64,000 nt of DNA, taken from positions 35,898,001 through 35,962,000 of the forward strand of contig OX597817.1 in NCBI GenBank assembly GCA_951406725.2. The letters run 5' to 3'. The notes under the pieces are model-generated. The model had not been told where the DNA came from. It saw only the letters and a list, made by a program, of their open reading frames with translations, and ran no database searches. This DNA comes from Octopus vulgaris. Taxonomy: Eukaryota. The position numbers were made by a program, and so were the translations under genes. Below, piece by piece: positions 6,140 through 62,660 of the stretch. Each line of letters starts with the position of its first letter. Positions within the stretch are counted from its first letter, which is position 1.

Positions 6140-6560
6140 TATATATATATGTGCGTTTATGTGTGCGTGTATGTATGTATGCATATGTGTGTGTGTCCAT
6201 ATATATATGTATACATACAGTCATCTCGACATGTTAGACTGTTGAACTCTGCACAGTTTTTCTCTCTCCGTTTTTTTTCATTTTCTCGCCATTTTTTTTT
6301 TTTTTATCTTAATCCTTTCTGTCGAAGAGCGTAGGCTTGAAACGTAAAAGCTTTTACGTTTCAAGCCTACGCTCTTCGACAGAAAGGATTAAGATAAAAA
6401 AAAAAATGGCGAGAAAATGAAAAAAACGGAGAGAGAAAAACTGTGCAGAGTTCAACAGTCTAACATGTCGAGATGACTGTATGTATACATATATATATGG
6501 ACACACACACATATGCATACATACACGCACACATAAACGCACATATATACATATATACAT
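6140..6560. repeat. Near-perfect spacerless palindrome (~210-bp arms, axis 6350/6351)
   Basis: ...gaaacgtaaaag|cttttacgtttc...; the arms differ only in homopolymer lengths and one microsatellite unit. Confidence 0.92.
6315..6350 (+). ncRNA. PLE-type minimal hammerhead-like motif, variant core (mirrored at 6351-6386 on -)
   Basis: cttt-CTGTCGA-a-gagc gtag gctt-GAAACGTA-aaag: stem I cttt/aaag, stem II, palindromic ACGT stem III. Position A6 is substituted. Confidence 0.5.
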
Positions 6561-7214
6561 ATATATGTGTAGGAGGGGGAGAGAGGGACAGACGGACAGA
6601 CAAACAGATAGACAGATAAACGGACAGGGACGATGTGAGAGACGGAAAGTGTTACACTGTTTAATTATGAACAGTTATTCATTGAAATCCAATTGTTTTA
6701 ACAAGTAAATATTTGACTTCGTTTCAGATACACAAAGATCAGCGATCAACAAACATTGTTGAACCCAGAGGTTGTTCCAGAACAGCAGCTCACAGACAGC
6801 AGCGAGTTGGCTCCAATCGATAATAAAGAAAAGGACGGAGATTATGACCACACACATACACGCGATCACGCACACACACACACACACACACACACACACA
6901 CACACACACACACACACACACACACACACACACACACACACTCACGAAATAATAAATTTCTGTAAATCTATGAGTACAGCATTTGTTTCTTTTTTCTATA
7001 ATCGTATATTATTATATGTTCAATATGTCCATATATCAGAAATGTATATATATAAAGTAAATAGAAAATGGAGAAATATTGCTCAACAACAATTGACTTA
7101 CATCAATCATTATTTTTTAATTCAATACAAATAGACTGCATCCCATCTAACAGCTGTTTCTGCTTCCAGTGTTATATGATATTGCCAATGATATTCTAAA
7201 ATTAATGTTCATCA

Positions 7215-8445
7215 ATAATGTTTAAAACTACTTGGTTAATAGAAGAGTAATAACTATCAATATCAATTTGTATTTAATACCATTATACCAATTTATTACT
7301 TCGTTGGTACTAGACCAAAGTTTTTTTAACGACCGTTATATACGTATCTAAAATAGCCTTACTTAGTCTACCCAAGTCAAATTTCCCTGGGCAAATCGAT
7401 CTTACTTTAGGGTTGCCATAAAAATTGTATTTGTGGTCCTTTAAATAAATCTAGGTCTTTTAGGAACGAAAAGTTCGGTTCTGTCATCCGATTTGTAATT
7501 TTTCATTATCTTTCTGGATATTAAGTTGGTAGTTCGTAATACAATTTTTGGGGTTATTTTATAACTTTTAGTAATTTCCTTTTTTAATAGTTCATGATAG
7601 TAATTTATTTCCAGTTTATACAAATTACTAGTCTTGTCCGAATGTACGGTTATCCCATTTTTACTTTTAAGGTCCGATACCATAGATTTAAGCTTCCTAG
7701 TGTGCTCATTTCCTTTGTGGGGATATTTCTTAATTCAACATTTTTAATAACTTTCCACAATTCGTCCTCAAAACATGCAAGATGACTATTTGATGGTGGG
7801 TATCTTTTAGTCCTAACAATTTCTAATAGTTGACCAGTCTATTAGGCGCAGGAGTAGCTGTGTGGTAAGTAGCTTGCTTACCAACCACATGGTTCCGGGT
7901 TCAATCCCATTGCGTGGCACTTTGGGCAAGTGTCTTCTACTATAGCTCCGGGCCGACCAAAGCCTTGTGAGTGGATTTGGTAGACGGAAACTGAAAGAAG
8001 CCCGTCTTATATATATGTGTATATATATATATATATATATGTGTGTGTGTGTGTGTGTGTGTGTGTGTGTGTGTGTGTCTGTGTTTGTCCCCCAACATCG
8101 CTTGACAACCGATGGTAGTGTGTTTACGTCCCCGTAACTTAGCGGGTCGGCAAAAGAGACCGATAGAATAAGTACTAGGCTTCCAAAGAATAAGTCCTGA
8201 GGTCGATTGCCTTGACTAAAGGCTGTGCTCCAGCATGGCCGCAGTCAAATGACTGAAACAAGTAAAAAAGAATAAATGAGTCTCTTTGGTTTTGTTATCT
8301 ATGGGTTTTTCTTGTCAAAGTAAAATGCTTCTCATCTGAGTCTATGGATAAATTCAGCTGTTTTATGTATTAGATCCATAATGTACTCCTTTTTAGGTGG
8401 AATTGAAATGTCCTTCATAGATATGTCACCCTCAAGTTTCTCCAT
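7215..8445 (-). pseudogene. Penelope-like element (possibly Naiad-type) N-terminal/RT ORF remnant, split by a SINE
   Basis: MEKLEGDISMKDISIPPKKEYIMDLIHKTAEFIHRLR*EAFYF...SDKTSNLYK...KDHKYNFYGNPKVRSICPGKFDLGRLSKAILD...WSSTNEVINW...IDIDSYYSSI resembles PLE motifs (SxKNIPIP, RMRWKA, DKTxNxY, KDHK, FDIxxFYPSI). Stops and frameshifts are present. Confidence 0.75.
7844..8277 (+). mobile_element. Full-length SINE family 1 inserted in the PLE ORF
   Basis: Complete head-to-tail copy; the PLE reading continues on both sides. Confidence 0.85.
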
Positions 8446-8779
8446 TTTACTGGTGGAGTCTTATATTAATCTACTTCTGTAGTTTAAATTTAATTAAATC
8501 ATAGATATAAAATCCTCTTAAAGGGATGTCAGCATCCAAGTTCCCCAGTATTATCCAGTTTATAAGTAAAAAACCATAGATGTTTGCTTCGCTTTGATGG
8601 ATAAGCAAATTTACTTATACATATACTTAAGTAAGGGCTTTTTAAATACATTGGATGCAAAAACACACATATATGAGGCTACCAAGTATCTGCTAACATA
8701 TTGGAATGTAGCACCTTTCTATCAAATTCTTCCCCTGGCGAACTGTCCAATTAGCTATATTCAATAGGAAACTATCCTC

Positions 8780-9158
8780 TGTGTGAAAAGTCTGACTGCA
8801 TCCGAAAAAATATATATTATGAAACAAAAATAAACCCAAAATTTATTACACGAATCTGTTACCACCACGACAATCAACTATTTGACGCCGAACACGAGTT
8901 TGATGTTGAATACATACACGAATTTTCCGCTCAGATAGCTCTTCCCAAGACTGCAAGACGGCTTTGTGCAATTCATGCCTCGTTGTAGGGTTTTTCAGTT
9001 CAACTTTATCGGCCAAAACTAAAGTTAATAATGATTCTGCTAATTCCACGTGTAAACATGTGTTGAATAGAACTGACTGAATAAATCTTAATTAACTGTG
9101 TTGTCAATTGTATGTACCTGACATATGCTAACGTGTATGCAGCCAGACTTTTCACACA
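8780..9158 (-). mobile_element. Internally deleted Tc1-like element with TIRs
   Basis: TIR pair tgtgtgaaaagtctgactgcat / atgcagccagacttttcacaca. ORF 8846-9049 (NPTTRHELHKAVLQSWEEL...IVDCRGG) resembles the Tc1 transposase C-terminus. Confidence 0.7.
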
Positions 9159-9403
9159 ATTTAATTGAATCTATTTTAGTTTCTCAAATTGAATTAATTG
9201 GGCATGGAAACAGCTATAGGTGCTAAGAGTTTGTTTTTGTTTGGAATTAAATATGTTATCATAAATTGATGTCTATATCTCAATTTCTCCGTTTTCATTT
9301 TCTCTCTCTGTCACATACACACACACACACACACACACACACACACACACACACACACACACACACACACACACACACACACACACACACACACACAATA
9401 AAA

Positions 9404-60689: not shown

Positions 60690-61140
60690 TAAACCTCCTC
60701 TGATATGTGACATTTGGTGAATGAGGGAGTTTGACGTCACTACCCATGTCTGTGTTTCTTGCTCAGAGGTAGGTTCCTCCAGAACTCTTGACAGAAGGAG
60801 ATCTAGTTTTGTTTTGAAAAAGCCTACATCCATACCATGCAGCTCTCTCAGGTTTTGTTGAAGGATATTGAAGAGCTGTGGCCCTTTGAAACCCAAGCTA
60901 TTGCAGTATCTGATCCTGTATCCTGATGGCAATATTGGGATCTTTGGTACCATGCAGTAGCACCCCATCCTGCCAAAGTTTGGAACAGATTTTTCTAGGG
61001 TTTTCCAGATGTATGTTACTGTATATCAGTTCTGCCTTCATTCCAGAGAATAAATAAACTCTTTCAGTCTCTTCCAGTAGCTGATATGTTGCATTGTATC
61101 AATTTTCATTGTGTAGCTTCACTGGATTGCCTCAAGTTCC
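60690..61140 (-). pseudogene. CR1/L2-group LINE 3' ORF remnant
   Basis: YWKRLKE..YSLE*R..YIWKTLE..NSLGFKGPQLFNIL..FKTKLDLLLSRVLEEPT. Confidence 0.75.
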
Positions 61141-62097
61141 ATCGTTCGTTAATTTTACACTGTTTGACAACACAGTTGGGAGCAATAATCCAGAGGGCTG
61201 AGAATGAAAGTCCTCCAGAGGACCATCATGGTTTCCTTTTCTCTTGTTCTGAAAGTTCAAAAGATCCACCTGGCCAGACGTCTGCATTTTATTTATCCAT
61301 CCGATTGCGCTCAAATTTGATATGTAGATACCGATGGTATCAGGGCGTGTATAAGTCTTGAAAAAAGTTACAAAAATCGATTCCAGGTGAGAATGTGATC
61401 GATAAAGCCGTTTTTGTCCTGCTTTTCTTTCGTCAGCCTGTACATAACTGCACCTTCCATTTTTTGTTGTTTTTGTACTGCTTAAAGGTACGTTTCTTTC
61501 CTGCCAAGCTTACTGCTTAAACCATGTTTGAGTTCTCCCAGTCAACAGTCTTACCATTACTGGCACTTTAAACTCTTCGGTTGCATATTTGTGGGGATAA
61601 AATCATTTTTCTTTGGAATAGAAAATAGCCTATCTTTATTTCTTCTTTTGCTGGTGTCTCAAATTTAGGTTAAATCAGTGTTTCTCAAAGGGGAGGCCTA
61701 TGGGACGGTCGGACAATTGTGAGAAAATTTGGTTTAAATGTTTGACAACTCAGTACCGTCCATTGGACGGGGGGTGGGGTGGCGTTTTGCTCTTATATGT
61801 ATATATATATATATATATATAATCATTATAGATATAGGGTAAAAAAATTATTAATTTAATAATAAATTTTACCAAGTAGTTTCGGTATGGAAAAGAACCA
61901 TATTCGGTAAAAACTTATACAAGAAGTTTTTATATATATATATATATATTTTTTATATATATATATATATTTTTATATATATATATATATATATATATAT
62001 ATATATATATATATATATATATATATATATATTTTTTTTATATATATATATATATATTTTTTGCTAAAATGTCGTATTGACGAGTTTCGTTTTTTTC

Positions 62098-62183
62098 ACT
62101 TTCCTGAAGAGAAGATTGCATTGTTTATACCATTTATTCTTTTGAATAGTATCAGTGGAATTTTCGAAACATGTGTCGAAAGT
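62098..62183 (+). ncRNA. Type I hammerhead ribozyme with canonical core and extended stem II
   Basis: actttc-CTGAAGA-gaagatt...aattttc-GAAAC-atgt-GTC-gaaagt: perfect 6-bp stem I, 7-bp stem II base, GUC site after 62177. The module lies between (TA)n tracts. Confidence 0.75.
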
Positions 62184-62424
62184 AAAAATACTTGTTTAAA
62201 CCTGCGTTAACTCCATTTTTTATTCATATTATTCAAAATATTCAACGTAAACACAAAGTTTCAACCTTTATAAACAAGGAGTTACAACACCTTTACTTGT
62301 GAGATTTTTGCTGCCCTGGTAACTATTTATTTATTTTTCCGTGTTAATTGTTAACAAGGTAAAAATACACTCATCTATTTATATATATATATATATATAT
62401 ATATATATATATATATATATATAT

Positions 62425-62660
62425 AACAATAATTAAGGGTTTAGCAACAAGTTGCTTCATCACATACCGAAAATTTCGAAATAGCAACCAAAAGACTGTT
62501 ATTTTTTTTTCACTACAAAATATGACTCCACAGATAACAATATCTGTAACTCACATAGTCATATTTTGTAGTGAAAAGAAAATAACGATCTTTTGGCTGC
62601 TATTTCTAAATTTTCGGTATGTGGTGAAGCAACTTGTTGCTAAACCCATAATTATTGTTT
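62425..62660. repeat. Foldback module (~100-bp arms) in (TA)n
   Basis: aacaataatta.gggtttagcaacaagttgcttca...actacaaaatatgact / agtcatattttgtagt...tgaagcaacttgttgctaaaccc.taattattgtt. Confidence 0.88.

Follow-up and report, generated by a model that had tools for sequence, protein, structure and literature searches.

Foldback modules

The window analyzed here is a 64-kb stretch of the Octopus vulgaris genome (contig OX597817.1, positions 35,898,001 to 35,962,000), which has a G+C content of 37% and is rich in microsatellites and repeats. It contains short inverted-repeat (foldback) modules, hammerhead ribozyme motifs and a decayed open reading frame (ORF) of a Penelope-like element (PLE) of the Hydra clade, which are the subject of this study. 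All counts refer to this one window or to 70 loci fetched from metagenome contigs. The nine foldback modules listed in an earlier, sequence-only reading (6140, 9404, 12864, 30353, 36953, 37720, 40830, 51129 and 62425) are all present, with arms of about 35 to 220 nt. The arms abut in 6140 (spacer of 0) and are separated by 1 nt in 37720; the spacer of 30353 is 5 nt after discounting a 517-nt repeated insert (30417-30933), and the others are 23, 29, 42, 45, 82 and 159 nt. Usually, one of the two arms extends further on its 5′ side, and this surplus makes the spacer. We also observed a tenth foldback at 48092-48223, with arms of 36-54 nt and a 23-nt spacer, which has neither a hammerhead nor an adjoining tract.

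Hammerhead parts face outward in six of the nine modules (9404, 12864, 36953, 37720, 40830 and 51129). Read in the sense of the hammerhead, the arms of these modules have their 3′ ends outermost and their 5′-truncated ends meeting in the center. At least three of them (12864, 36953 and 51129) have a tail on one side only, seen as an extra 36-72 nt at the 3′ side of one arm. Module 9404 (9398-9730, head to head) has its left end at (CA)43 and carries an intact-core hammerhead at 9640 on the plus strand, with a second copy on the minus strand cut within the core. Module 12864 (12864-13051, head to head) lies between CA tracts and has a Hydra-type hammerhead at 12924 on the minus strand with stem III ACUC-U-GAGU; its right arm begins 2-3 nt past the predicted cleavage site, and its tail is 72 nt long. 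Module 36953 (36922-37122, head to head) lies between TA tracts, with a 36-nt tail on the left only and a decayed hammerhead on the plus strand (stem II plus GAAAUAUGUA). Module 37720 is an old head-to-head palindrome (37708-38133) with outward hammerheads on both strands, of which the plus-strand copy at 37958 has an intact core and a long stem II, and the minus copy is deleted. Module 40830 (40827-41008), also old and head to head, has decayed outward hammerheads in both arms (a weak match, E 9.5). Module 51129 (51066-51233, head to head) has a hammerhead 3′ half (GAAACUCAGAGUU) on the minus strand and a tail of about 60 nt on the left side that ends at a TA tract.

No recognizable hammerhead is found in 30353 and 62425. 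The outward, head-to-head orientation of 30353 (30356-31068) was assigned through homology: its right arm resembles the end of the Hydra-clade remnant from the cleavage site on, and the insert lies in its left arm. Both arms of 30353 and the right arm of 12864 start within about 3 nt of a predicted cleavage site; these are only two events, and the register in 30353 comes from a diverged alignment. At least six copies break off within the ribozyme. Module 62425 (62426-62660) has 102-nt arms between TA tracts and no tail. Toward its outer end, each arm (62458-62480 in the minus arm, and the mirror arm) contains UGAUGA and AAAC together with a 6-bp hairpin, which may be a hammerhead with two mutations or a chance resemblance.

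Module 6140 (6151-6566) is a palindrome without spacer, arranged tail to tail, with its left end at (TA)14 and a family A hammerhead facing inward on both strands (cores at 6319 on the plus and 6382 on the minus strand). Its center, at 6350/6351, is the end of stem I, and the 122-nt inner core compared between the arms shows no substitutions and two gaps. At the matching point the sister copy 10349 has a one-base-interrupted palindrome, AAAAG-A-CTTTT. Directly left of 6140 lies the 3′ end of a Naiad PLE (5705-5990, minus strand), in which 5705-5822, compared by eye with the published consensus of Naiad_Obim, shows 6 differences over about 118 bases of the 3′ end (about 95% alike).

Six further copies are solo. 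Two are family A ends: a 5′-truncated one at 10259-10420 (minus strand), between TA tracts and with core CUGUAGA, and one at 12650-12798 (plus strand) with core CUGAUGA, which ends at (CA)32. A family B end (41160-41219, plus strand) has the same short 3′ end as 12864 and abuts (TA)29. A minimal hammerhead with an intact core at 39512 and stem III ACUAGU occupies 39470-39520 on the minus strand, and a decayed end with a hammerhead 3′ half (GAAACAGCUGUU) occupies approximately 37400-37600, also on the minus strand. The copy at 62058-62375 (plus strand), between two TA tracts, carries the best-preserved hammerhead of the window (62098-62184, E 8e-5), with a 6-bp stem I, a long stem II and a GUC triplet.

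Sequence families and microsatellite association

The modules had been described as unrelated in sequence, but three recurring families emerge from z scores over 756 pairs. Family A consists of 6140, 10349 and 12691 (z 9-12) and family B of 12864 and 41170 (z 12-14). The third family consists of 30353, 7140 and probably 9208, the right arm of 30353 matching the end of the Hydra remnant at z 9.3. Merging 37554 with 7140, 9208 or 37955 into one family was rejected, the similarity being at or near shuffle level. In this window, the foldback junction is repeated in none of the three families with two or more loci. Family A is found as two solo ends and one tail-to-tail form, and family B as one foldback and one solo end.

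Modules and motifs are enriched beside (TA)n/(CA)n, as had been proposed. Of 20 module ends, nine are no more than 10 nt away from a tract with at least five units, against a background of 2.6%, and for 10 of 19 predicted cleavage sites a tract follows in the next 130 nt, against a background of 13%; cleavage sites and module ends were set by eye, and paired arms are not independent.

Hammerhead motifs

A strict descriptor (CUGANGA core, stem II of at least 4 bp, GAAA and palindromic stem III) was compared with 60 block-wise dinucleotide shuffles. It detects four minimal hammerheads (9640 and 12695 on the plus strand, 39512 on the minus strand and 62104 on the plus strand), against a shuffle mean of 0.17, and none of the 60 shuffles reaches four. 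With one core mismatch allowed there are eight motifs, two of which look like chance, against a mean of 3.18 (0 of 60 shuffles); when the stem III rule is dropped, the excess is nearly gone (23 versus 15.1, 1 of 60 shuffles). The Hydra-type 3′ half alone occurs six times, twice outside any module, against a mean of 1.31 (0 of 200 shuffles reach six).

As judged by eye, both core halves and a cleavable triplet are kept only in 9640, 37958, 39512 and 62104, all of which have the core halves, stems I and II and the palindromic stem III of a minimal type I hammerhead. In family A, core position 6 (in the standard numbering of hammerheads) is U at 6319/6382 and 10379, and the standard A at the third locus. 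At 12695 the cleavage position is G, which makes a hammerhead inactive. The motif at 12924 has C at core position 4 and a decayed stem II, that at 37785 has a deletion, and that at 37554 has lost the 5′ core half; some stem II loops are 25-70 nt long. The about nine hammerhead motifs listed earlier thus comprise only four intact cores, the rest being altered or partial; most copies are decayed and predicted to be inactive.

We further searched the window with a covariance model, with rough E-values, that was derived entirely from other animals, namely from 24 of their Hydra-PLE hammerheads. The top three matches, at 62096 (E 8e-5), 12891 (E 0.004) and 9632 (E 0.1), are all motifs listed earlier. 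Those at 6311/6345, 37779, 10343 and part of the 39475 motif reach only E 1.7-6.9, amid chance matches, and 12691, 37554 and 37955 are absent from the 22 matches at E up to 10. In the 24 motifs from other animals 11 of 12 pairs covary, but pairing was itself required by the descriptor that selected these motifs. For 62104, 37958 and 39512, the minimum-energy or the centroid fold has an open core flanked by stems I and II. An Rfam scan of the window gave no hammerhead among the 150 of 271 matches listed; the top matches listed belong to microRNA families, fall on microsatellites and hairpins and stay below the gathering scores.

The Hydra-clade remnant and related loci

A single Hydra-clade PLE ORF was mapped at 8445-7223, split in two by a repeat that we take to be a short interspersed element; in place of the two PLE ORF remnants reported earlier, we found this one. 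A Pfam scan of 150 short ORFs of the 209 listed revealed no second PLE ORF. The N-terminal piece (8305-8445, minus strand, beginning MEKL; independent E-value [iE] against the profile 7e-10) has lost the W of the RWK motif to a stop codon, reading RLR*EAF where homologs read LRWR, LRWK or ARWR. The second piece (7223-7814, minus strand, iE 3e-13) is frameshifted and extends from the DKT motif to reverse transcriptase (RT) motif A. The profile, which maps the ORF together with six long homologs described below, was made from 49 fetched ORFs, and the 70 metagenome loci were fetched with an alignment of seven homologs. According to PMC8557442, the Hydra clade is defined by a change from DKG to DKT, an N-terminal RWK, a C-terminal GIY-YIG domain with a CxCX5C linker and the lack of CCHH. 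The remnant has the DKT change (HSDKTSNLY), and its nuclease/CxCX5C region is deleted.

A 96-amino-acid piece of the remnant (7441-7731) matched 116 proteins at E up to 0.001, among which P0002 is an unrelated repeat protein; a word-indexed protein search with the Hydra piece gave no match. Six long homologs are RT-like proteins of 580-760 amino acids with DKT, RT motifs, a C-terminal nuclease-like region and, where complete, the CxC-X5-C linker (seen in P0069, P0085 and P0090). Pfam named no family, including GIY-YIG, in these six.

Past RT motif A the remnant breaks off into a hammerhead 3′ half (GAAACAGCUGUU) at 7160, with the 5′ core half lost, and then into a TA run 95 nt past the cleavage site; this 3′ end lies at 7056-7165 on the minus strand and terminates in TA repeats. 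On the other side, 9165-9311 (plus strand) is likely an inverted, 5′-truncated copy of the same end, with a hammerhead 3′ half, that ends at (CA)43; it is AT-rich and moderately supported (score 72 versus a shuffle maximum of 55, z 6.2). The remnant end and its likely inverted copy thus frame the ORF (7056-9311) as the arms do in the modules.

Similar arrangements were found in the metagenome loci. A sense hammerhead lies downstream in 16 of the 28 Hydra loci that have at least 200 nt of downstream sequence, and the covariance model adds several. Two loci (L009 and L051) combine an ORF, an inverted truncated copy, outward hammerheads and a one-sided tail, and L068 holds a foldback that faces outward, lacks an ORF and has a family-A-like GAAACGUC end. 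Over 59 nt, the 12897 motif agrees at 76% with the hammerhead of L001/L002 (E 0.006 in a small set, with four matches at E up to 0.05), which in L001 lies upstream of a Hydra ORF. A DNA profile made from 27 Hydra termini was uninformative, being dominated by TA runs.

Two other observations concern the Hydra loci. A conserved GCUC...GAGC hairpin, sometimes repeated, lies 50-70 nt past many Hydra hammerheads (L001-L070; 13 of 27 termini) and is a candidate for the signal at which reverse transcription begins. In L003 (2371-2550) and L013 (2499-2683), different Hydra families lie tail to tail in one TA tract with their hammerheads facing each other.

Other features of the window

A 333-amino-acid open frame with a PTB/PID domain (27163-28164, plus strand; PF14719, E 8e-9) likely belongs to a host gene. 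A SOCS box exon lies at 51747-51998 on the minus strand (PF07525, E 9e-9); its host gene may cover part of the window, which could place some modules in introns. A short element at 8780-9158, lying between the Hydra ORF and the inverted copy, has 22-nt terminal inverted repeats and a translation that resembles what we take to be the end of a Tc1 transposase. A hammerhead-like stretch near 8900 was rejected because it lies inside this element. At least six copies of one repeat, presumably Helitron-like from its end motifs, occur at 11829, 13902, 30417, 49467, 49977 and 62691; their terminus is a hairpin plus CTAG, and the copy at 30417 is the one that interrupts module 30353. Long interspersed element RT, zinc-finger remnants and a mariner-type helix-turn-helix remnant were found at 33054-33714, 47191-47673, 25375-25539 and 58375-58689. 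A TA-flanked piece at 40284-40620 (minus strand) has a decayed GAAAACCGGUU motif 96 nt ahead of its TA tract and is a possible PLE 3′ end. It contains a 45-amino-acid candidate second ORF (40484-40618), for which a word-indexed protein search and the Atlas gave no homolog.

Comparison with known systems

In PMC8557442, PLE insertions are described with an inverted 5′-truncated copy, a one-sided tail of 30-40 nt and (TA)n targeting, and a Hydra element, Hydra-1_Obim, is reported from Octopus. The window shares with the Hydra-clade PLEs of that work (Hydra-1_Obim of Octopus bimaculoides and Penelope-13_HM) the DKT motif, the (TA)n targets, the 3′ hammerhead with a 4-bp palindromic stem III and the inverted 5′-truncated copy with a hammerhead on the opposite strand. 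It differs in that the copies are mostly ORF-less stubs, several of them in (CA)n, in that the tails are 36-72 nt rather than 30-40 nt, and in that the Hydra-1_oBim hammerhead is different in sequence from the window families. The 12897 motif shares its layout with Hydra-2_aMil, an entry of the supplement to that work; three window motifs were not found in this supplement, where line breaks can hide matches.

Minimal hammerheads of metazoan PLEs are mostly single motifs, ascribed to truncated PLEs, and also occur as pairs on opposite strands, 100-700 bp apart; they cleave poorly and only as dimers (PMC4209133). The window motifs share with them the extra nucleotide after A9, the palindromic stem III, the dispersed singles and the opposite-strand pairs at such distances. 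In contrast, family A has U at core position 6 at two loci, some stem II loops are long, and the density is higher here (4 intact cores in 64 kb, compared with about 9,000 motifs across the entire genome of Xenopus tropicalis; PMC4209133). The Penelope elements of Adineta vaga have head-to-head inverted pseudo-long terminal repeats (pLTRs) with palindromes at the junctions, and resemble the window in these as well as in the optional tail, the internal deletions and the solo pLTRs (PMC3846280). The Adineta copies are few, whereas the window has many families, microsatellite targets and one tail-to-tail case.

Earlier publications thus already describe the inverted truncated copy, the tail, the microsatellite bias, pairs of hammerheads on opposite strands and a Hydra element from octopus. 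For Octopus vulgaris, an annotation from 2026 gives 31 Penelope-like families as recently active; its main text mentions neither hammerheads nor ribozymes. A literature search, with most subscription journals, Repbase and Dfam outside its reach, revealed no paper devoted to octopus hammerhead foldbacks.

Origin of the modules

The arms, their orientation, the tails, the adjoining tracts and the recurring families are seen directly, as is the same frame around ORF-bearing Hydra copies. The modules are probably one-off insertion scars of PLEs of the Hydra clade and at least one other lineage, and each likely holds two very short, 5′-truncated copies of the 3′ end of an element, head to head. Because ORF-bearing copies share the frame (7056-9311, L009 and L051), truncated ordinary PLE insertions explain the modules. 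From the original proposal of PLE derivatives of many families, we therefore retain the PLE origin, the several families and the association with microsatellites, but not the ORF-less non-autonomous or retrozyme-like system.

In such an insertion, the GIY-YIG nuclease of the element would nick both strands within a microsatellite, and its RT would begin synthesis downstream of the hammerhead, at two positions in the RNA separated by about 35-70 nt. The two cDNAs would stop early and then be joined head to head at short palindromes or microhomologies. In the product, the hammerheads would face outward, the 3′ ends would lie at (TA)n/(CA)n and one side would carry a tail; solo motifs would come from the same event with one copy, and the hammerhead would be a passenger. 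A PLE protein has been found to nick and extend both strands, with two internal RNA start sites bounding the tail, and hammerhead mutants had no effect on insertion in vitro (PMC11167929). Since mutants insert normally in vitro, minimal motifs cleave poorly and the pairs lie on opposite strands, the ribozyme needs no role in forming the stubs. Self-priming on an antisense template is a published alternative, in which a sense template predicts tail-to-tail forms (PMC3846280); two-strand priming and self-priming appear to us about equally probable.

Several observations weigh against an origin from truncated PLE insertions. Module 6140, one of the nine, faces inward, and 37720 and 40830 do not adjoin tracts (nor does the foldback at 48108). 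Modules 12864 and 30353 resemble the termini of ORF-bearing PLEs, but no parent was found for the other seven modules; no ORF-bearing parent was found for family A, 9404, 36953, 37720, 40830, 39475 or 62098, and the family A motif had no match in the metagenome contigs. Even for 12864, the tail shows no significant alignment with the L001 terminus (score 55, shuffle maximum 67), and the two share only a post hoc motif with one match in the window. The descriptor found no hammerhead in 12 of the 28 Hydra loci, the Hydra remnant is internally deleted rather than 5′-truncated, and folding of 10 motif regions gave none clearly stabler than shuffles (z -2.0 to +0.6). Nearly all copies are shorter than 320 nt, for which short template RNAs could account as well.

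Two other accounts are less probable. One holds that the modules are dedicated non-autonomous PLE derivatives, in which short ORF-less masters, possibly whole foldbacks, are mobilized in trans by PLE proteins. The copies are indeed very short and dense, most families are without an identified parent ORF, and in Adineta pLTR sequences are enough for mobilization in trans (PMC3846280). However, the junction is not repeated within any multi-copy family, the forms vary within families A and B, and ORF-bearing copies have the same frame; we consider this account improbable, although, with one window as the sample, a short master copy may lie elsewhere. In the other, PLE RT would copy hammerhead-cleaved RNA from both target strands, the cDNAs would run off and join at the cleavage site, and the short RNAs would serve as non-autonomous templates, yielding one motif per few kb. 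It draws on the arm starts near cleavage sites in 30353 and 12864, the breaks inside the ribozyme and the centering of 6140 at the end of stem I, and it too seems rather unlikely to us.

Non-LTR (long terminal repeat) retrozymes, which would spread via small circular RNAs excised by tandem hammerheads, are likewise non-coding, PLE-related and equipped with type I hammerheads (PMC7229834), and have been proposed to originate from pLTRs, leaving dispersed monomers (10.64898/2026.07.22.740005). Their head-to-tail tandem units yielding circular RNAs (PMC7229834) are absent from the window, which has no tandem array with a hammerhead; motifs of the same family on the same strand are at the closest separated by 4.0 and 6.4 kb, and the motifs are of the minimal PLE type. 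As the paired motifs lie on opposite strands, a single transcript cannot carry two sense ribozymes. Lacking tandem hammerhead repeats and a shared junction, the window supports neither retrozymes, which we regard as very improbable, nor a dedicated non-autonomous family.

An origin at the DNA level would invoke miniature inverted-repeat transposable elements (MITEs) or inverted duplications in TA tracts for 62425 and 48108, and for 6140 a template switch at a quasi-palindrome or an assembly artifact. For these three alone its probability falls somewhat short of even: 62425 has equal ends, no tail and no clear hammerhead, and the inner arms of 6140 lack substitutions, include a microsatellite-like flank and are centered at the AAAAG-A-CTTTT site of 10349. 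Sense self-priming also predicts tail-to-tail forms (PMC3846280), and 6140 may be a self-primed sense form, a DNA template switch or an artifact. As an account of the whole set, a DNA-level origin is highly unlikely, as it leaves unexplained the outward hammerheads, the tails and the Hydra homology of the other modules.

Taken as scars of truncated PLE insertions, these features are probably ordinary debris of known element types and no new mobile system. The short TA-flanked foldbacks here are likely PLE ends that might be misread as MITEs, as microRNA hairpins or as a ribozyme element of a new kind. If 5′ ends throughout the genome were to peak at the cleavage site, this would be genomic evidence for cleavage of transposition templates by PLE hammerheads, which was not necessary in vitro (PMC11167929). 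Should the window be typical, the genome would hold very many PLE inversion junctions, a large natural sample that would bear on the origin of head-to-head PLE structures and on the role of the hammerhead during transposition.

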